The translations under genes were made by a program, and so were the position numbers. The notes beneath the pieces are model-generated. The model saw nothing but the letters and a program-made list of their open reading frames with translations. It did no database searches and had not been told where the DNA came from. A stretch of DNA of 64,000 nt, from assembly GCA_019634385.1 (NCBI GenBank), contig JAHQVK010000170.1, positions 3,040 to 67,039 on the forward strand, written 5' to 3'. Of this stretch, positions 4,866 through 27,688 are shown piece after piece (within the stretch, counting starts at the first letter, position 1; every line of letters starts with the position of its first letter). Origin of the DNA: Myxococcales bacterium. Lineage in GTDB: Bacteria; Myxococcota; Kuafuiibacteriia; Kuafuiibacteriales; Kuafuiibacteriaceae.

Positions 4866-6015
4866 TCATATCGGCGTGAATTGGGTCTGCTGGTCTGATA
4901 TCTGGATATTGGCCGCTACCACGAAAAGTCCGGAATTTAGCGATGCCGTTGCTTCTTTCTGTCATCCAGTCGGGCTGGACGGTGACCTTTCCCAATCCAC
5001 CGGGAACATCAACACACAGTTTAGGAATCATCAGCCCGCTGACCCTACCTCGTAACCCATCAATAATATCAATGCCAGTCTGCAGGGGGGTACGAAAGTG
5101 GCTGATACCTTCGGCTAGGTCACACTGGTGTAGGTAGTAGGGAATGGCTCGCATGAATACGAGCTTACGGTTGAGGTTTTCGATGGCTTCCACTGAGTCA
5201 TTGATGCCCTGCAGGAGAACGGACTGATTCATAACTTGGATTCCAGCGTCTAATAGAAGCTTAATCGAACGGGCAGCTGCTTCGGTACATTCTTTCTCAT
5301 GGTTAAAATGGGTCATGATGTACGTCGGGCCATAGTCTCGAAGTATTTCCACGAGTGCCGGTGTTATCCGCATAGGACAGGTTGCCGGCATTCGAGTGGC
5401 AACCCTAATTACGTCTATATGAGCGGCAGAGCGTATCTCTTGCATAAGATACTTCAACTGCTGGTCACCATTCATTAGCGCATCACCGCCGGATATTAAT
5501 ACTTCTCGAATCTCCTTGGTTCGCTTAATATAGTCGAGTGCTTGCTGAAGTAGGCTCCGAGTAGCTTGTTGTTCAAGCCGCCCCACAATTCGTCGACGCG
5601 TACAAAATCTGCAATAAACAGGGCAGCGATCGGTGGCCAAAAGAAGTACACGATCTGGGTATCGATGTATAAGATTAGGCGCAACCTCTAACATTTCTTC
5701 CCCTAAGGGGTCTGATTGATCTTGCTCTCCGAGAATGGTTTCTTGAGTGCTAGGGATAATCTGTTTTCGGATAGGACAGTTTGTATCTCTTTTATCCGCG
5801 AGCAAGGCGTAATACGGACATACTGAAAATCTAAATAGATTCTTAGTTTTTTCTAACCCATCACTTTCATCTTTTGTTAGTTCAAATGTTTGGGCTAGAG
5901 CACTAATATCCGTAATACGATTTTTAATTTGCCATCCCCAGTCGACCCAGAGTTCTGGAGCGACATGTGCCCATGGGGTATTAGATAATTCAGGATTCGA
6001 GTAAAAGCGATTCAT
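4855..6015 (-). CDS. KamA-family radical SAM protein (lysine 2,3-aminomutase / EpmB-like)
   Basis: HRYPDRVLL, CPVYCRFC, ISGGD, NQSVLL, PYYLHQCD and PGGLGK motifs. Confidence 0.9.
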   Translation of the reverse strand: MNRFYSNPELSNTPWAHVAPELWVDWGWQIKNRITDISALAQTFELTKDESDGLEKTKNLFRFSVCPYYALLADKRDTNCPIRKQIIPSTQETILGEQDQSDPLGEEMLEVAPNLIHRYPDRVLLLATDRCPVYCRFCTRRRIVGRLEQQATRSLLQQALDYIKRTKEIREVLISGGDALMNGDQQLKYLMQEIRSAAHIDVIRVATRMPATCPMRITPALVEILRDYGPTYIMTHFNHEKECTEAAARSIKLLLDAGIQVMNQSVLLQGINDSVEAIENLNRKLVFMRAIPYYLHQCDLAEGISHFRTPLQTGIDIIDGLRGRVSGLMIPKLCVDVPGGLGKVTVQPDWMTERSNGIAKFRTFRGSGQYPDIRPADPIHADMTKH

Positions 6016-17609: not shown

Positions 17610-18233
17610 TTGATGCCGACGGAAGGGAGCTACTTGGTACCATCGGGGCTCGTTGAGACTCAATCAGAGGTCCGGAGCAGTCGGTTTTTGGCCGCAGTGT
17701 CCCTGGCTGCCACCAAAGCTGATGCCCAGATTTTTGTTAATCATCAGCGTAAAAAGTATCCGGAGGCCTCCCACCACTGTTTTGGTTTTCGAGTAGGCCC
17801 ACCACAATCGACGATGTGCATCGGATGTTCCGATGATGGTGAGCCTCATAGTTCAGCCGGGCGGCCGATCCTAGATGTTCTGATTCATTCCGGATTTGGA
17901 GATATTGTGTGTGTAGTCACCCGGTGGTTTGGCGGGACCAAGTTGGGACGCGGAGGACTGGTTAGGGCCTATGGAGAAGCTACGCAGGGAGCATTGGCCG
18001 CCGCTGTTCCGGTGGAGAAAGTGGACTGGATAGAGGCCAGCTTGAACCTGGAGTACGCGCAGGCAGAGGTATTTAGCCGAGAAGTGGCCGGTTTACGGGT
18101 TGAGAAGCTCGAAGAGCAATATGGGGCCACGGTGCAGATGAAGATTCGATTCGCGCGAAGTGAGCATCACCGATTGGGTCAACGCCTCCGGCAATTGACG
18201 CGGGGTGCGGCAACACTTTGGGTAGATGATTAA
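17610..18233 (+). CDS. yigZ: YigZ/IMPACT family protein
   Basis: SRF, ASHHC, SDDGEP and VTRWFGGTKLGRGGLVRAY motifs. Confidence 0.9.
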   Translation: MMPTEGSYLVPSGLVETQSEVRSSRFLAAVSLAATKADAQIFVNHQRKKYPEASHHCFGFRVGPPQSTMCIGCSDDGEPHSSAGRPILDVLIHSGFGDIVCVVTRWFGGTKLGRGGLVRAYGEATQGALAAAVPVEKVDWIEASLNLEYAQAEVFSREVAGLRVEKLEEQYGATVQMKIRFARSEHHRLGQRLRQLTRGAATLWVDD

Positions 18234-18891: not shown

Positions 18892-20226
18892 ATGGCAATG
18901 AAGGCGACCATCAGTGAGCAAGAGGCATCGAATCGAGACGTCACAGGGGCGGCTACATGGCTGGTTCGGGTGGGTTCGGCCGCTGAGCCACTAACAGAGC
19001 CCCAAATATACCCGTTAGAAGAGTCCGTGCCAGTGCATTTGTGCCGACACGAAGCCGATGTTCCGCAAGGTACACGTTGCATTGCGACTTCGGATCGGTG
19101 GATGTCGAGTCAGCATGTGGAGGTGTGTCGAACTGGCGAGGGTTGGAGACTCTCGGACCTAGGTTCGAGCAATGGCACTTTGACATGGGGCAGGCGTCGC
19201 TCGACGACACTCCTTGCGAACGGTGACGTATTTGAAACTGGAAGCACGTTCTGGCTATTTAGGTCAGAGTTGATCGGGGCGCCCTTCGAGAGAGGATCGA
19301 AGAGGGAAGAGTTTTTTGAGACCGTTTCTCTCCGAATGAAGGCGGTGTACCAAGAACTGGACCGTATGGCTACCAGCCGTATTCCACTCGTCATTCGAGG
19401 ACCCATCGGTTCGGGAAAGGAAGTTTTCGCTCGTGAGGCTCACCGAATCTCGAGCCGTTCGGGCCGATTTGTGCCTCTAGATGCAGGGACAATTGCTCCT
19501 AAGCTGGTGGCCCATGAACTATTTGGCGTTCTTGAACATGCTGATGTGCAAGAACGGGCACGGCAGGGGCGGTTGCGGCTAGCTGATAGAGGTACGCTGT
19601 TCATCGATCAGCTTGAAGATATTGCTGAACCGGTGCAGTTGGCGCTGCTTAGGGCGGTGCAAACGGGGGAAATCGTCTCGGTGGGTAGCGATGAACCGGA
19701 GCAGATTGACGTTCGGTTTATTGCAAGCACTCGCTGTGACCTCAAGGAGCTAGTGGAATCTCGGGGGTTTCGTCCAGACTTGGCCTCTCGATTAAAAGGA
19801 CTGGTGCTGGCCGTGCCGTCATTGAAAGAACGCCTTGAGGATTTGGGCCTTCTCATCGGGCACTTCCTCCGAAAAGTTGGGCTCGAACATGTCACATTTT
19901 CTCCTGCGGCCTACCGCGCATTGATGTCCTATGGTTGGCCGGGCAATATTCGTGAACTGATGCAAACGCTGGAGTCCAGCGTTGCCCTCTGCGAGGGCAA
20001 TAAGATTGAGCTCGCGGACTTGCCAGTGGAAGTACAGTCTTACCAGCCTCCAGAGGCAGTAGAAGAAAAGACTAGCGATGAGCATCGTGAGCGAGAGCTG
20101 ACGCGACTGCTCACAGCACACCGCGGAAATGTGAGCGCGGTGGCTCGCTCAATGGGATATTCACGTATGCAGGTGCACCGATGGATGAAGCAAATGCGCG
20201 TAAATCCAAATGACTACCGAACGTAG
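18892..20226 (+). CDS. FHA + sigma54-activator-like AAA+ + Fis HTH regulator (degenerate motifs)
   Basis: SSQH/LGSSNGT FHA motifs; GSGKE, FRPDL and WPGNIREL; C-terminal GNVSAVARSMG HTH. Confidence 0.88.
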   Translation: MAMKATISEQEASNRDVTGAATWLVRVGSAAEPLTEPQIYPLEESVPVHLCRHEADVPQGTRCIATSDRWMSSQHVEVCRTGEGWRLSDLGSSNGTLTWGRRRSTTLLANGDVFETGSTFWLFRSELIGAPFERGSKREEFFETVSLRMKAVYQELDRMATSRIPLVIRGPIGSGKEVFAREAHRISSRSGRFVPLDAGTIAPKLVAHELFGVLEHADVQERARQGRLRLADRGTLFIDQLEDIAEPVQLALLRAVQTGEIVSVGSDEPEQIDVRFIASTRCDLKELVESRGFRPDLASRLKGLVLAVPSLKERLEDLGLLIGHFLRKVGLEHVTFSPAAYRALMSYGWPGNIRELMQTLESSVALCEGNKIELADLPVEVQSYQPPEAVEEKTSDEHRERELTRLLTAHRGNVSAVARSMGYSRMQVHRWMKQMRVNPNDYRT

Positions 20227-20261
20227 CTAGCGCGCAACGGACAACCGATCAGGAGGCCCCT

Positions 20262-20636
20262 CTACTGCTGTCTCCTAACCAGCACCACACCATTTTTTGA
20301 GCGGCTGGCACTTTTTAATCGATTACCCTGACGCATAGCTAAAGCCCGTGCGTATTCGACGCAATCCAAGGGATCGTCGTAGTGGCAAATTTTGGTGAGG
20401 AAGAGCTCACATCGGGTGCATTTTTGCCGCTGTTCGGTGCCGATGTTAGCTTCTCGATCGACGACCCCAAGCTGCTTTGCCGCACAGTTTCTGCAAAGGG
20501 CTGGTTGGTTTGGGCGGGGGCTGAAGTGAATGGTGTCTAGGGAACCACAGGATGTACACGTGATTTTTCGGGCAACACGGGTGCCATGGTCACTCCGAAT
20601 TTTCCGCGCTGAGGTTGGTTTTTTACCCTTCACCAA
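20262..20636 (-). CDS. CxxC-x17-CxxC zinc-ribbon protein
   Basis: CTSC, 17 residues, CRNC, then a further CTRC...C...C cluster. Confidence 0.75.
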   Translation of the reverse strand: MVKGKKPTSARKIRSDHGTRVARKITCTSCGSLDTIHFSPRPNQPALCRNCAAKQLGVVDREANIGTEQRQKCTRCELFLTKICHYDDPLDCVEYARALAMRQGNRLKSASRSKNGVVLVRRQQ

Positions 20637-20713
20637 AAAAGCCTAGCCCAACCTCCTGAAATGCCAAGTTGAACTTGTGAAATGTTTCCAGTCTCCTCTA
20701 CGAATGTTGTCTA

Positions 20714-20727
20714 TGCACAGACGTTCA
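20714..20727. promoter_or_regulatory. candidate LexA operator
   Basis: TGCAC-AGAC-GTTCA imperfect palindrome ending 14 bp before the lexA ATG; resembles GAAC-N4-GTTC and the Myxococcus GTTCAG half-site. Confidence 0.5.
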
Positions 20728-20741
20728 GATAATACAGTTGT

Positions 20742-21416
20742 ATGCAGGGGTTGACGCGCCGCCAGCAGCAAATACTGGATTTTATTACTCGACGAATCAA
20801 TGAGCAGGGCTATCCCCCGACGATCCGTGAAATAGGAGAGGAGATGGGTATTCGGTCCACGAACGGAGTAAATGACCACTTGAAGGCTCTCGAAAGGAAA
20901 GGTTTTTTGCGACGGGAAGGGCTAAAATCTCGGGCTCTTCGACCAGTGAACATGGGATCACCTGCTCTGGCGGTGCCATCAGTTCCATCACCACCGGTAC
21001 CCGCCAACGATAACGGACGAACTACGGGGGTTCCGGTCTTAGGTCGGGTAGCGGCGGGATCACCAATTCTGGCGGATGAGAATGTTGAAACGACGGTCTT
21101 CGTAGACAGTTTTTTTCTGGGGACGGCCGATGTTGGGCGGGTTTTTGCTCTTCGAGTGTCAGGCGAATCGATGATCGAGGCCGGTATTCTGGATGGCGAT
21201 TTTATTTTTGTTCGTAAACAGCCCGAAGCACATCGAGGAGATGTTGTGGTGGCCATGATCGACGGCGAAGCAACTGTGAAACGTTACGAGCCTGACGGGG
21301 ATGTGATTCGTTTTGTGGCGGAGAACGCATCGATGGCTCCGATTGTTGTTCAGCGCTCTGACTTCAGGAATACCGCTATATTAGGAGTGGTTTGCGGAGT
21401 CTACCGACGCATCTAA
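20742..21416 (+). CDS. lexA: LexA SOS repressor
   Basis: [22 protein letters not shown] cleavage site, GESM and TVKR catalytic residues. Confidence 0.97.
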
Positions 21417-21463
21417 TTGCGCTGGTGCTTTCCATCATCTGAGCTTCTTCGTAGTACGGGCCG

Positions 21464-22399
21464 GTGGAGTATTACTTCCTGAGGTACGGAGACCTGGAAC
21501 TGCAGCGCCGGATGGTAAGTGACCGATGGCGTACGGACGCTTTCGCTAGGGCCATAGCCGAGGCGGTTCGTCCCGGTGATGTGGTTCTCGATGTGGGGAC
21601 CGGCACCGGGATCCTCGCTATGCTAGCTGCTAAGGCTGGGGCCAAAACGGTTTATGGTGTTGATGCTTCCGAAATCGTACAGTCCGCTGCGAACCTGGTG
21701 AAGGCTAATGATCTATCTGGCACGGTGAAGATTCTACGTGGACCAGCCCAGGAGCTTGAGCTGAATGAGCCAGTGGACCTTATTGTTAGTGAGTGGCTTG
21801 GTCACCTCGCGTTTGTCGAGAATATGCTTGATGACGTGTTAGTGGCTCGGGACCGCAATCTTGTGGAAGGCGGACGAATGTTGCCCTCAAAAGTAGATGT
21901 GCGGCTAGCACCCCTAGATGATCCATACTTGTACTTTCGTGATGGACCGGGTGCTTGGCGCAATTCAGTACATGGACTTGATCTCACGAGCTTAGAGCCG
22001 ATCGAACTTCGACAGGGTCGAGCGGTTCAGACTCGGATTGATCCGAGTGGGTTGCTAGCAAGCAGTAGCTCCATAAGTAGGATCGATCTCGCTCGTACCT
22101 CAAATGAAGGCCCGTACGGTAAAACATCTCATCGATTTGAGGTGACTCGGGATGGGGTCCTGAATGGATTTGCCGGATGGTTTGTTGCTCAGCTTTCTGA
22201 AGGGGTGGTTCTGGATACCGGTCCCCAGCAGCCTGAGACTCATTGGTCACAGACCTGGTTTCCTTTCCCTCCCCAACCAGTGCGAAAAGGTCAGATTCTT
22301 GAGGTCTTGGTGGATATATGTCGTGACCAGGTCGAGAAAAGATACCTATCGGTAGATATTCGCACCCTCGATCTCAGTCAGTGCTTTGTGGTTGAGTAG
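21464..22399 (+). CDS. type I protein arginine methyltransferase (PRMT)-like SAM-dependent methyltransferase
   Basis: YYFLRY, MVSDRWRT, VLDVGTGTG, VDLIVSEWLGHLAFVENM (double-E loop), GGRMLP and PETHWSQT (THW loop). Confidence 0.85.
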   Translation: MEYYFLRYGDLELQRRMVSDRWRTDAFARAIAEAVRPGDVVLDVGTGTGILAMLAAKAGAKTVYGVDASEIVQSAANLVKANDLSGTVKILRGPAQELELNEPVDLIVSEWLGHLAFVENMLDDVLVARDRNLVEGGRMLPSKVDVRLAPLDDPYLYFRDGPGAWRNSVHGLDLTSLEPIELRQGRAVQTRIDPSGLLASSSSISRIDLARTSNEGPYGKTSHRFEVTRDGVLNGFAGWFVAQLSEGVVLDTGPQQPETHWSQTWFPFPPQPVRKGQILEVLVDICRDQVEKRYLSVDIRTLDLSQCFVVE

Positions 22400-23060
22400 G
22401 AACGACCCCCAATCGAAACCGGTTCTTGCTGTACACAAAAACTAAGTTCTCACCTGAGGACAGAAGGGCCTTGTTGGGACCTGGTATAAGATTTAGCTGG
22501 GCTACCGGTTTCGGCAGTTCCTCAACTGAGGATAAACCGACGTCGTCAAACATCAGTACAAGAACTCTGCGCTCGGGTTGAGTGGTTGCTTCAAAAAAAG
22601 CTGCATCAGTGATCCCGTTGCCATCGAAGTCGGCCAGTAGGCATGGGGTACCGGGAGGTTGGAGGTCTTCTTTGTGAATGCCAATCCGGGTTAGCGCCGA
22701 GAGTCCGTGAAACAGCGTAGGGGCAGCACATGAGCAGGGCTGGGTACCGTCGCATGAACTTCGCTCCGAACTCTGGTAGTCGATGCCAGTATTGTTTTTA
22801 CCAAGTTGTACCCCGTTTTTTGCTGGGGGAAGCGGGGTCACTGGACGTGGGGCGGGTTGGCTCGCAGAGACGGGGCCAGAAGTGGGCTGACTTGTTGGTG
22901 TTGCGGCCGAGGTGGGTTGACTAGTGGGTGCTGAAACTGGTTGGCTGGTGTGTGTTAATGTATCCGGTGGAAGTGGCCCTGCTGGACGGCAACCGCAAAA
23001 GATTGCGAACAAGATCACAAGACGGAGTACGGTATACATACTGTGAATGACAGCACGCAT
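22374..23060 (-). CDS. putative lipoprotein with TSQP-repeat stalk
   Basis: Lipobox-like FCGC, four (T/A)SQP repeats, ADFDGNGITD Ca-binding-like motif. Confidence 0.65.
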   Translation of the reverse strand: MRAVIHSMYTVLRLVILFAIFCGCRPAGPLPPDTLTHTSQPVSAPTSQPTSAATPTSQPTSGPVSASQPAPRPVTPLPPAKNGVQLGKNNTGIDYQSSERSSCDGTQPCSCAAPTLFHGLSALTRIGIHKEDLQPPGTPCLLADFDGNGITDAAFFEATTQPERRVLVLMFDDVGLSSVEELPKPVAQLNLIPGPNKALLSSGENLVFVYSKNRFRLGVVPTQPQSTD

Positions 23061-23369
23061 GTAACAAACAACGAAGCAAATCTAGGAAGTTTGGGACGTA
23101 GGAGATCGTTGGTGGCCACCCTTTCTGTTTGTCTCGGGCTGTGGAGTGTAATTGGAGTGGGCTGTAGTGTTCCTCCATGTGAGGAGGCGGAAGCGTGTTG
23201 TGAGGTGACTGAGTCTCTGTTGTTGGCTCTTGGTATGAACGCCAATCAGGTGACCTCAACATGTCAAGGGTTGGAGGAGGCCAACGACGACCAGTGCACA
23301 ACAATCACTGATGAGTTGCAAATGACGTTGTCGGAGTGGGGTCTGCGAGTACCGGAGGACTGTATCTAG
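23043..23369 (+). CDS. small Cys-rich putative lipoprotein
   Basis: Signal-like segment ending in GVGC, several further Cys, acidic composition. Confidence 0.55.
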   Translation: MNDSTHVTNNEANLGSLGRRRSLVATLSVCLGLWSVIGVGCSVPPCEEAEACCEVTESLLLALGMNANQVTSTCQGLEEANDDQCTTITDELQMTLSEWGLRVPEDCI

Positions 23370-23510: not shown

Positions 23511-24020
23511 TCAAGGATCGTTCGGTTTGGTGGATTCAACCTCAGGCTTTGGTCGGGGCCGTTGTAAGAATCTAAAAAGTTGGCTGGCATTTGCTCCTCC
23601 GCGTGACCGGGGACTGCAAGAGAAAAGTCTCTGGACGAAATCGGAACCAGCAGCGGGCCATTTTCTAAATAGTTCTTCCGCAATCGGAGAGGAAGAATCT
23701 TCGGACTGGAAGTTCTCTAGGGTTGAACTCAAGTGGTGTAAAAAAAAATCGCTGAACGATTGGTCGTTCATGCGGATAAGGTTGAGCAGCAACGGCACTG
23801 GCAATAGCCGCGAAGCTCGTCGGCTTTCCAAAACAATTTGAGCGAGGGTTGCTTGGGTTATATCCTGACCGCTTTTGGCGTCAAATACTTGAATCTGACT
23901 ACCTTCTTGGACCTTACGCGCGAGCTCTTCCAACGTGACGTATCGACTATCGCGTGTATCGTACAGACGTCTGTTGCTGTACTTTTTGACCACGATTTCG
24001 TCAGCTGTCTTGTCCGCCAT
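23511..24020 (-). CDS. phaR: PhaR-like polyhydroxyalkanoate synthesis regulator (DNA-binding domain)
   Basis: KKYSNRRLYD...YVTLEEL...DAKSGQDIT motif. Confidence 0.85.
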   Translation of the reverse strand: MADKTADEIVVKKYSNRRLYDTRDSRYVTLEELARKVQEGSQIQVFDAKSGQDITQATLAQIVLESRRASRLLPVPLLLNLIRMNDQSFSDFFLHHLSSTLENFQSEDSSSPIAEELFRKWPAAGSDFVQRLFSCSPRSRGGANASQLFRFLQRPRPKPEVESTKPNDP

Positions 24021-25606: not shown

Positions 25607-27688
25607 TCAAGGCCTAGTCACTGCGCGCGGCCCTTCTTTTTGTTGTAGTCGTTGTTTGTTGGCACCCAAAGAAGGACCTCGGGGGGCTATGGCGAGGTCA
25701 ACCGCAATTTCGATGGCCTCGTTCACAAATGTCTTTTCGAGTCGTTCGAAACGTTGATCGTCATCTTCTTGTTCTTCTGTTGACTCGTCCTTCTTCTTTT
25801 TTTGCTCTTCTGCGAAGTCGGTAAGGTCAACGATCCCTTTCCTTTTCTCGGCTTTTTCGATTTCAGCATGAATTTCGGCGTACGCCTCTGATGTGGAGAT
25901 TCGTGCCTTCGAGCGTCGAATAAGTCGCTCGGTAGCTGTCAGAGAAACCGGCGTCCAGTGGTCTTTGTTGGCCTTGTTGACGTGTAACGACCGAAATTCC
26001 TGAGTGGATTGGGGTGGAAGGCTATAATCAAGGTCTTTCTCCCCCATTTCGACGGTTGATAGAAGTGAAGGGACAACCAGATCTGCGCTCACCCCGACCT
26101 GTTGGGTGGAGCGGCCGTTGGGGAGGAAGTACATGCCAGTTGTGACTTTGACTGCGCCTAGGTTTCCGGGCAGTGGACGAAGGGTTTGAACGCTCCCCTT
26201 ACCAAATGAAGATGTTGCGGCTCCCACGACTAGCGCACGCTGATAAGATTGGAGAGCTCCGGCAAGAATCTCACTTGCGGAGGCGCTAAGAGGGGATATT
26301 AGAACCACCAGAGGGCCAGACCAAGAGATCGATGAATCCGTATCTTTAAGGATGCTGACTTCGCCACCAGTGTCTCGAGTGGCAACGATCGCTCCCTCAC
26401 GAATGAAGAGGCCAGAGATTCGGACTGCGTCTTCCAGGTACCCGCCGCCGTTTTTGGAAAGATCTAGCACCAAAGTATCAGCTGATTTAGCTTTAGCTTC
26501 TTCCAGCAAGTGTTTAACGTCCAAATAAGAAGATCTTCCATCACGATCTCCTCCTCCGTAGAAGGATGGAAGTTCCAGTACGCCTACTTTGAACTTTTTG
26601 TTGTTGCGGGTGCGTTCTTCGAACTCAATTTTTGCTGCTTGTTGTTTTACGTCGATCTTATCTCGAACAATGGTGACACCGAATGTTTTAGTTTCAGTAC
26701 CCTCCCTCAGGATACTTAGCGTGACCTTTGTTCCCTTTTTTCCACGAATGAGTTTTACAACGTCTTGGATAGACATATCGATCGTAGTGACTGGTGCTTC
26801 TCCATCTTGAGAAACTGCGATGATTTTGTCCTTAGGTCGCAGTTTGCCGCTCTTCTCCGCTCCGCCACCAGGAATGAGAGACTCAATATAGGTAAAGCCA
26901 TCGGACGAACGAAGGGCGGCACCAATACCCTCCAAGGATAACTTCATATTGATTTGAAAATCTACGAGTGAGTCGTGCGAAAGGTAGGACGTATGGGGAT
27001 CGAGGGAGCGAGCAAAGGCCTCAGCAAAGATTTCTGGAAGGCGTTGCTTCTTAGCCCGTTCGGCTAAACGTTTTTCCACAAGTTGATAGCGATGTACGAG
27101 CTGTTTTTTCGCCTTGTCCATGGCTACGCTACCCCTCAAATAGTTGGCCATTTGGAAGTGAATGAGGGACTCAACCAATTGGCTACGTTGTACTGTGCTT
27201 AGGGCATAGCCACGCTCGTCGGGATCTATTACGATCTTAACCGAGGTATCTACCTTATAAGAGTCCGTCATCAGTTTTTGAGCATGTAGAGTATCTTCTG
27301 TTGCTTTATTTTGGATGATACCGAAGGCTTCGCTGAGAAGCTCACAGTTCCCTTGAGCAATGGTGTCGAAATGCTTTTCAATACGCGTTGTGAGACCTTC
27401 TGCTTCGCTCTTAAGGAGGAGTGTGCGTGAAGGATCGATGCTTTGCACAAACTGCTCGGCGGTGCGGTGCTTGAGTTCAGGGGTAATATTACCGATACTG
27501 TAGTGATAGGCTTGATATTGCGCAAACAGCTTGCTCAAGGCGTTACAGGGGAGCGAAGCGGCTTCAGCTTGGCGAGTGGTTTGCGCGCAGGCCGTTCCTG
27601 CCACGACAAGGATAATGCTCGTGGCTCGTAGCCACACAGTGTACAGTTGCTCGGGCATAGATTTCATAACCTCTCTGTGCAAAAACAT
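25607..27688 (-). CDS. prc: carboxy-terminal processing protease (S41A, Prc/Tsp)
   Basis: DPHTSY, GIGA PDZ loop, DLSKNGGG, SASASEI and FGKGSVQ motifs. Confidence 0.92.
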   Translation of the reverse strand: MFLHREVMKSMPEQLYTVWLRATSIILVVAGTACAQTTRQAEAASLPCNALSKLFAQYQAYHYSIGNITPELKHRTAEQFVQSIDPSRTLLLKSEAEGLTTRIEKHFDTIAQGNCELLSEAFGIIQNKATEDTLHAQKLMTDSYKVDTSVKIVIDPDERGYALSTVQRSQLVESLIHFQMANYLRGSVAMDKAKKQLVHRYQLVEKRLAERAKKQRLPEIFAEAFARSLDPHTSYLSHDSLVDFQINMKLSLEGIGAALRSSDGFTYIESLIPGGGAEKSGKLRPKDKIIAVSQDGEAPVTTIDMSIQDVVKLIRGKKGTKVTLSILREGTETKTFGVTIVRDKIDVKQQAAKIEFEERTRNNKKFKVGVLELPSFYGGGDRDGRSSYLDVKHLLEEAKAKSADTLVLDLSKNGGGYLEDAVRISGLFIREGAIVATRDTGGEVSILKDTDSSISWSGPLVVLISPLSASASEILAGALQSYQRALVVGAATSSFGKGSVQTLRPLPGNLGAVKVTTGMYFLPNGRSTQQVGVSADLVVPSLLSTVEMGEKDLDYSLPPQSTQEFRSLHVNKANKDHWTPVSLTATERLIRRSKARISTSEAYAEIHAEIEKAEKRKGIVDLTDFAEEQKKKKDESTEEQEDDDQRFERLEKTFVNEAIEIAVDLAIAPRGPSLGANKQRLQQKEGPRAVTRP

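Follow-up and report, generated by a model that had tools for sequence, protein, structure and literature searches.

Does an open reading frame (ORF) that follows lexA in a myxobacterial genome encode a protein arginine methyltransferase (PRMT) of the kind known from eukaryotes, and does its position mean that arginine methylation is under SOS control? The question was raised by a 64,000-nucleotide stretch of the Myxococcales bacterium assembly GCA_019634385.1 (contig JAHQVK010000170.1, positions 3,040 to 67,039), referred to here as the window. A first-pass annotation made from the sequence alone had noted in it a 311-aa ORF starting 47 bp past the lexA stop on the same strand, had read this ORF as a eukaryote-style type I PRMT, and had supposed that it might be co-transcribed with LexA and so possibly be induced by DNA damage. 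The coordinates of both genes agree with that description (Table 1). Judged jointly with the function, vertical inheritance and own promoter proposed for it below, it seems to us probable that the ORF encodes a minimal PRMT that stands alone, composed of a Rossmann domain, a beta-barrel and a dimerisation arm and having no accessory N-terminal domain. The SOS link, at first the most striking aspect of the locus, is not supported by the comparative evidence.

Sequence, fold and modelled dimer of the PRMT

In a phmmer search of the PDB, the ORF matched 75 distinct chains at E <= 0.001, and the matches spanned residues 2-304, nearly the entire protein. The best were PRMT3 (E 6.2e-45) and yeast Hmt1 (E 1.2e-44), followed by PRMT6, PRMT8, PRMT1, PRMT2 and CARM1 (for PRMT3, Hmt1, PRMT6, PRMT1 and CARM1, E values ran from 6e-45 to 1e-38), with type I enzymes (PRMT1/2/3/4/6/8-type) making up the best 53 of the 60 matches listed, at E values from 6.2e-45 to about 1e-34. 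Moreover, the C-terminal half matched the Pfam family PRMT_C at 57.4 bits against a cut-off of 27 (E 2.2e-15).

All of the PRMT motifs named in the first-pass annotation were found in the translation and in the expected order, and their conservation was read from an alignment of 78 homologous sequences. The N-terminal YYFLRY aligns with YYFDSY of Hmt1, and residues 2-8 are helical in the AlphaFold2 (AF2) model; in the segment that follows (RRMVSDRWRT, residues 15-24), M17 aligns with the Met in HEEML of PRMT3, and both Y8 and M17 are conserved at 90% or more. D43, G45, G47 and G49 of motif I, which binds S-adenosylmethionine (SAM), are invariant, while E110, W111, G113 and E119 of the double-E loop, as well as all three residues of the THW loop, are again conserved at 90% or more. 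The annotation had also placed a Met after the second Glu of the double-E loop, which is correct as to the residue and not as to its position, since it stands two residues on (E119-N120-M121), as does the Met in FESML of PRMT3 with which it aligns; M121 is the majority residue at this position. M17 and M121 are the counterparts of M48 and M155 of PRMT1, active-site methionines that we take to be linked to asymmetric dimethylation.

The AF2 model, built with the 78 aligned homologues, had a mean predicted local distance difference test (pLDDT) score of 96.7 and a predicted template modelling (pTM) score of 0.92. In Foldseek, its top matches were all PRMTs, PRMT3 first (8g2g_A: E 3.1e-38, template modelling (TM) score 0.94 over the whole chain, root mean square deviation 1.8 Å, 32% identity) and then PRMT6, PRMT2, PRMT1 and CARM1. 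Both the PRMT beta-barrel and the dimer arm, whose absence from the predicted structure would have told against a PRMT, are present in the model, the arm as three short helices (residues 154-160, 162-166 and 177-184) with the WRNSVHGLDL segment at residues 165-174. When two copies were modelled together, the score was 0.75 (runs of 0.75, 0.75 and 0.73) versus 0.00 for the best of three controls; the runs shared at least 81% of their contacts, with partner pLDDT of at least 90. In calibration, 20 of 30 proteins with structures solved as pairs of one chain attained the mark used for a dimer, compared with 1 of 23 whose structures are single chains. The modelled interface brings the arm (residues 160-188) of one copy against residues 10-28, 48-57 and 74-82, in Rossmann-domain helices, of the other. 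Since PRMT dimers are known to have this geometry, the pass may reflect likeness to those already solved. The protein most likely assembles as the canonical head-to-tail homodimer. As far as sequence and model go, then, the 311-aa ORF is a full, bare PRMT core that begins at the first catalytic helix, and sequence, profile, predicted fold and modelled dimer agree in bearing out its reading as a eukaryote-style type I PRMT.

Table 1. Positions in the window of the PRMT gene, its motifs and domains, and adjoining features
Feature	Position	Strand	Description or basis
PRMT-type protein arginine methyltransferase core	21464..22399	+	311 aa, GTG start, without N-terminal extension
N-terminal helix, YYFxxY (YYFLRY, residues 3-8), and M17	21470..21514	+	Alignment with PRMT3 and Hmt1
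SAM-binding motif I, VLDVGTGTG, residues 41-49	21584..21610	+	Aligned with PRMT3 VLDVGCGTG
Double-E loop, SEWLGHLAFVENM, residues 109-121 (E110, E119, M121)	21788..21826	+	Aligned with PRMT3 SEWMGYFLLFESM
Dimerisation arm, about residues 153-188	21920..22027	+	AF2 model; three short helices
C-terminal beta-barrel, PRMT_C match at residues 164-299	21953..22360	+	PF22528; model strands 188-310
THW loop, T259-H260-W261, within PETHWSQT (residues 257-264)	22238-22246	+	Aligned with PRMT3 and Hmt1 THW
lexA-PRMT gap, with TTTCCA (21429-21434), 17-nt spacer and TAGTAC (21452-21457) 6 nt before GTG	21417..21463	+	Diverged copy of family block
lexA, 224 aa, ATG start	20742..21416	+	Winged-helix DNA-binding and S24 self-cleaving domains; TIGR00498, PF01726, PF00717
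lexA promoter-like block, TTGTCT (20707-20712), 17-nt spacer, TAATAC (20730-20735)	20707..20735	+	Sequence and conservation
Zinc-ribbon protein, 124 aa, two CxxC pairs, divergent from lexA	20262..20636	-	Pfam zf_Tbcl_2, 28.8 bits (cut-off 27)
Convergent ORF, 228 aa, overlapping the PRMT 3' end by 26 bp and closing the transcription unit	22374..23060	-	ORF list

Distribution and phylogeny

A six-frame search of 40 relatives found full-length orthologues in 19/19 other genomes of the family (E 2e-150 to 2e-76, 49-71% identity), and two genomes from other families of the phylum gave weaker full-length matches. The PRMT_C profile was present in 42 of 201 Myxococcota genomes (all 19 in the family, patchily elsewhere), in none of 14 controls, and in 2 of 151 genomes of Verrucomicrobiota, counting the centre genome. 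A search for related loci retrieved 12, of which five were in Myxococcota metagenome-assembled genomes and seven in Verrucomicrobiota (Pelagicoccus, Opitutaceae, Puniceicoccaceae and strain DG1235), the latter being 47-50% identical; among them, the named strain Pelagicoccus mobilis KCTC 13126 (locus L018) carries an orthologue with 50% identity. On a wider scale, a word-index protein search gave 1110 proteins at E <= 0.001, and an exhaustive search of 50%-identity representatives gave 12316 at E <= 0.001 and 1022 at E <= 1e-30, eukaryotes among them, with other bacterial clades scoring 175-345 bits against the window PRMT.

An unrooted IQ-TREE phylogeny was computed from 53 rows, mostly unlabelled metagenome proteins, picked from the 78 of a quick tree; its bootstrap was not fully settled. 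The window PRMT falls in a clade of 17 rows (support 100/99) that holds rows of its own family from three genera and three rows of Verrucomicrobiota (L018, L020 and L022, locus positions 5001-5930), which nest, at an unresolved fork, within the Myxococcota family clade. This nesting, together with the rarity of PRMT_C in Verrucomicrobiota, suggests that the latter acquired the PRMT from Myxococcota by transfer between phyla. The sister of the window clade (95/86) is a group of nine rows that includes a Planctomycetota-named protein. All three eukaryote-named rows (Protostelium, Amoeboaphelidium and a Phlyctochytrium PRMT3) lie in a separate clade of 17 rows (100/100), the other 14 of which are unnamed. 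Because the window clade is separate from the clade with the named eukaryotes, the tree indicates that the PRMT gene is not a recent capture from a eukaryote, and we propose that it has instead been passed down vertically within one family of Myxococcota.

PRMTs tend to be regarded as having arisen in eukaryotes, in connection with chromatin and RNA-binding proteins. A complete, minimal PRMT in every sampled genome of one bacterial family, with kin in Planctomycetota and in a small number of Verrucomicrobiota, leads one to expect arginine methylation of the eukaryotic type in bacteria, would provide a simple bacterial system in which to study how PRMTs catalyse and dimerise, and bears on which bacterial lineages gave protein-modification enzymes to early eukaryotes. 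On the last point we offer only a tentative suggestion, which we think more doubtful than not: an ancient bacterial lineage of complete PRMTs, acting on arginine in bacterial proteins, may survive in Myxococcota and Planctomycetota, and the eukaryotic PRMTs may derive from it or have in it their nearest living relatives. PMC13468126 names these two phyla among bacteria as major contributors of genes, other than the mitochondrial one, to the last eukaryotic common ancestor. With the clades separate but the tree unrooted, a bacteria-to-eukaryote origin and a single old transfer in reverse are equally allowed.

Gene order and transcription around lexA and the PRMT gene

The gene upstream of the PRMT is, by its profile matches, a canonical LexA: TIGR00498 matched at 219.8 bits (E 2.7e-65; cut-off 110.95), and Pfam recognised both LexA_DNA_bind (PF01726) and Peptidase_S24 (PF00717). 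Its translation shows the Ala-Gly site, the Ser in GESM and the Lys in TVKR, presumably with the functional roles that these have in LexA. In the promoter-like block before lexA, a LexA-box-like site (CTATGCACAGACGTTCAGA, 20711-20729) occupies the spacer, with 6 nt between the end of the second hexamer and the ATG. A corresponding block, ATGTTGCG..tA.ACA.gtGTTCAG.TA...T, was found in 17/17 lexA upstream regions, ending 13-20 nt before the start. The window site resembles the SOS box of M. xanthus, given as CTRHAMRYBYGTTCAGS in PMC9705874, and the whole block resembles a promoter that contains an M. xanthus-type LexA operator. The GTTCAG hexamer lies 13 nt before the lexA start in 10 of the 17 family loci, suggesting that lexA mRNA may be leaderless, or nearly so, across the family. 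When a position weight matrix (PWM) built from the 17 lexA boxes was run over the genome, the lexA box of the window ranked first, with 19.4; none of the genes beside the next intergenic matches (for a Cip1-like protein, fatty-acid desaturase and glycosyltransferase, besides unnamed ORFs) could be recognised as having an SOS function. Since the genome-wide scan defined no regulon, the LexA-box call rests on position, conservation and likeness to M. xanthus.

Is the PRMT gene, then, part of an SOS-controlled operon with lexA, so that arginine methylation would be switched on by DNA damage? We examined gene order in 20 family genomes, including that of the window, by taking about 12 kb round each orthologue and locating LexA, the zinc-ribbon protein and the PRMT by tblastn; one contig was too short, leaving 19 evaluable genomes. 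A same-strand lexA lies upstream of the PRMT gene, either adjacent or 1-4 kb off, in 17 of the 19, which speaks for a link, as does the tandem state itself, found in five different genera. It is directly upstream, however, in only six (the window genome, G003, G013, G015, G016 and G018), whereas in 11 an opposite-strand 5'-nucleotidase-like gene (about 510 aa, with a PF02872 C-terminal domain) comes between the two, accompanied in three of these by a short-chain dehydrogenase/reductase (SDR) gene; the PRMT cannot be co-transcribed with lexA in these 11 genomes because the intervening gene is on the opposite strand. In the other two, the 5'-nucleotidase-like gene is present and lexA is not seen. 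The adjacent or separated state changed at least five times on a tree of 17 genomes. The tandem arrangement in the window looks like the result of loss of the intervening gene, since the same-genus relatives G001 and G002 both carry it, and no orthologue was found in the window assembly (93% complete), where the only relative is a paralogue elsewhere with 27% identity.

Linkage of the PRMT gene to lexA also forms part of a longer conserved order of about ten genes, running from a sigma-54/FHA activator through zinc ribbon, lexA, nucleotidase, PRMT, pseudouridine synthase, redoxin, DivIC and a GAF-GGDEF protein to PIN-PhoH, so that nearness to lexA is not specific to the PRMT; from the window, as from its genus, the downstream portion of the order has been lost. 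Further afield, no lexA was found within about 6 kb of the distant PRMT homologues in two other Myxococcota families, or within 5 kb of the close homologues in Verrucomicrobiota, whose seven loci share genes for a kinase-like protein, inositol monophosphatase and BipA among themselves, none of them common to the Myxococcota loci.

Regulatory sequence points the same way. The LexA-box-like site in the lexA promoter-like block would favour an SOS operon, but up to 260 nt upstream of 19 PRMT genes no LexA-box-like site was found: the best PWM score was -9.9 for the window gap and ranged from -6.9 to 7.2 for the other 18 regions, compared with 16.8-29.3 at lexA (random 260-nt stretches: median -3.0, 95th percentile 5.5). 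A promoter-like family block with a conserved motif in its spacer, GAATAGTCTTTGCC..AGATCAAC..GTATG, ends 6-8 nt before the conserved GTG of the PRMT gene and is clear in 7 of 14 aligned loci; two loci of the adjacent type (G013 and G016) keep the first half of it. We therefore place the more probable start of PRMT transcription at a putative promoter of its own just 5' of the GTG, with possible additional read-through from lexA in the window genome. Such read-through may occur here, the gap being only 47 bp, with no terminator-like site and no unusual RNA structure (fold z-score -0.57). Among public sequencing runs, a single one, of DNA and perhaps from the source sample itself, was listed as containing this sequence, and none of RNA. 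The word 'methyltransferase' does not occur in the text of PMC9705874, weak evidence since M. xanthus may lack an orthologue. Altogether, we regard an SOS operon as unlikely. That the PRMT is co-transcribed with LexA is not borne out as a property of the family, and comparative evidence does not support a conserved DNA-damage operon; the adjacency appears to be one state of a changeable gene order, the PRMT's position right after lexA having arisen from a local arrangement that shifts among relatives.

Several further features of the locus were observed. The PRMT start is GTG in 12 of the 14 aligned loci, the remaining pair having TTG and GTC there, and GAGTACTAC comes next; the start region has no Shine-Dalgarno-like sequence and has a -10-like element 6-8 nt upstream, which suggests a leaderless transcript. 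The 5'-nucleotidase-like gene (L013:3409-4947 (-); also L014, L025-L030, L032, L034-L036 and L042) encodes a lipoprotein-like N-terminus and was gained or lost at least five times; in one genus (L032, L034 and L035), the copy shares no more than 35-36% identity with the rest and could represent another paralogue. The zinc-ribbon gene was found by tblastn beside lexA in 10 of 16 other family genomes with lexA in view; in the window it starts about 75 nt from the LexA-box-like site, and it is possibly an SOS gene with a conserved position. The zinc-ribbon/lexA pair is preceded, on the upstream side, by the gene for a sigma-54-dependent activator (18892-20226 (+); FHA, Sigma54_activat, AAA lid and HTH_8), in the same place in six related genomes. 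The convergent 228-aa ORF has a lipoprotein-like signal (FCGC) and a Pro/Thr/Ser-rich linker; it matched no Pfam family and had no counterpart beside the PRMT in the other related loci. More ordinary neighbours encode an IMPACT/YigZ-family protein (UPF0029 and DUF1949; 17610-18233), a PhaR-like regulator of PHB accumulation (23511-24020) and a tail-specific protease (S41 and PDZ; 25607-27688).

Proposed function and comparison with known systems

The conserved catalytic machinery, read with what is established for PRMT1 and PRMT3, makes it most likely that the enzyme acts as a homodimer that would transfer methyl groups from SAM to the guanidino groups of arginine in proteins of the bacterium itself, with the expected products being those of a type I enzyme, monomethyl-arginine and asymmetric dimethyl-arginine. 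Glycine-arginine-rich tracts are the classic substrates of PRMT1 and PRMT3. The best-looking tract of this kind in the genome is in a 366-aa protein (L048:681-1781; G000 contig C20) with a long Arg/Gly/Ser-rich C-terminal tail that includes GRGGRGG, a speculative lead to a substrate.

Several results weigh against this proposal of a self-transcribed enzyme for bacterial proteins. A scan of the genome for clustered RGG/RGR/GRG in ORFs of at least 60 aa gave only five weak ORFs, the 366-aa protein among them. We saw no sign of a 'system' with a reader or an eraser: Cupin_8 (PF13621, JMJD6-like) was absent from the 93%-complete assembly and present in two controls, and the Tudor profile (PF00567) had no match in the assembly, nor any in the control genomes, so that its silence carries no information. 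The gene neighbourhoods, which are housekeeping in Myxococcota and made up of unrelated genes in Verrucomicrobiota, give no functional hint. As to the promoter, the window retains only a diverged and partial form of the PRMT-proximal block, and a simple sigma-70 scan of 20200-23100 returned no promoter-like site. Finally, in a full-text literature whose coverage leaves out most subscription journals, no paper was found that characterises a stand-alone bacterial PRMT with complete barrel and arm, or a close relative of it.

The scarcity of glycine-arginine-rich candidates would fit an enzyme that methylates not proteins but a small molecule or a peptide natural product, such as free arginine, a guanidino compound or a ribosomal or non-ribosomal peptide, and a role of this kind was proposed for bacterial PRMT-like domains in antibiotic biosynthesis operons (PMC3417536). 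No genes for non-ribosomal peptide synthetases, dioxygenases or amine oxidases adjoin the PRMT gene, however, either here or in 18 related Myxococcota loci, where the neighbours are lexA and the genes for nucleotidase, pseudouridine synthase, redoxin, DivIC, GGDEF protein and PhoH. Moreover, the gene is present in 19/19 family genomes, unlike an accessory biosynthetic cluster, and the whole PRMT1/3 architecture for protein substrates (barrel, arm and dimer) is kept. We judge this alternative improbable, slightly more so than the SOS operon. A eukaryote-like effector acting on host or prey proteins has least of all to recommend it: predicted PRMTs of Legionella with unknown function, for which such a role has been suspected, and one arginine methyltransferase that is secreted by mycobacteria and has host histone H3 as its target are listed in a review (PMC10117894), the only public run containing the window DNA is labelled plant metagenome, and many Myxococcota are predators, but the protein starts at the catalytic core with neither signal peptide nor extra domain, its gene sits in a housekeeping neighbourhood in every sampled family genome, and its clade is separate from the named eukaryotes, leaving no room for recent host capture. 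Housekeeping context, conservation across the family and the lack of an export signal or a biosynthetic partner thus disfavour both alternatives relative to methylation of the bacterium's own proteins.

How does such an enzyme stand among known systems? When PRMT1, PRMT3 and CARM1 on one side were compared with PrmA on the other, the window ORF sided with the PRMTs. PrmA has no beta-barrel, arm, double-E or THW elements. It has the class I Rossmann SAM-binding domain in common with the window PRMT, in which PF06325 matches residues 30-125 (E 7.5e-13), the match being limited to profile positions 154-246 of 296, in the Rossmann part, and not extending to the full PrmA length with its N-terminal L11-binding domain. 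An identity as PrmA was rejected on this partial match and on the score of 37.6 bits for the NCBIfam prmA profile TIGR00406 (cut-off 183.15); the PrmA equivalogs of NCBIfam as a whole gave 27-41 bits against cut-offs of 183-327.

Bacterial homologues of PRMTs are already in print (PMC3417536) and in annotation pipelines, and the window gene adds a member to them. For the PRMT-like domains of bacterial secondary-metabolite operons and peptide synthetases, PMC3417536, which summarises Aravind et al. 2011, gives a proposed place as sister groups to the PRMTs of eukaryotes; these domains belong to the same methylase radiation as the window PRMT. The latter differs from them in being stand-alone, in its housekeeping neighbourhood with no biosynthetic partners and in its full PRMT_C barrel and arm, a distinction drawn from their description and not from a comparison of sequences. 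Proteins auto-annotated by JGI as bacterial 'type I protein arginine methyltransferase' are of the same family, and some close matches bear that name; a Planctomycetota cluster named 'protein arginine N-methyltransferase 1' by NCBI is 34-36% identical and lies in the sister group of the window clade. Unlike these, members of the window clade are mostly named 'L11 methyltransferase' or 'class I SAM-dependent methyltransferase', a difference of names only.

Compared with the type I PRMTs of eukaryotes, the window PRMT is only 29-33% identical, and its 311 aa do not include the zinc-finger, SH3 or PH-like N-terminal domain found there. Since its PDB phmmer scores against the different paralogues are nearly level, from 157 bits for PRMT3 to 134 bits for CARM1, it can be assigned to none of them in particular. 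What it has in common with the cores of these enzymes (PRMT3 2fyt, 1f3l and 8g2g; Hmt1 1g6q; PRMT1, PRMT6, PRMT8, PRMT2 and CARM1) is the fold, the YYFxxY helix, motif I, the double-E and THW loops, the two Met positions and, in the model, the arm-based head-to-tail dimer.

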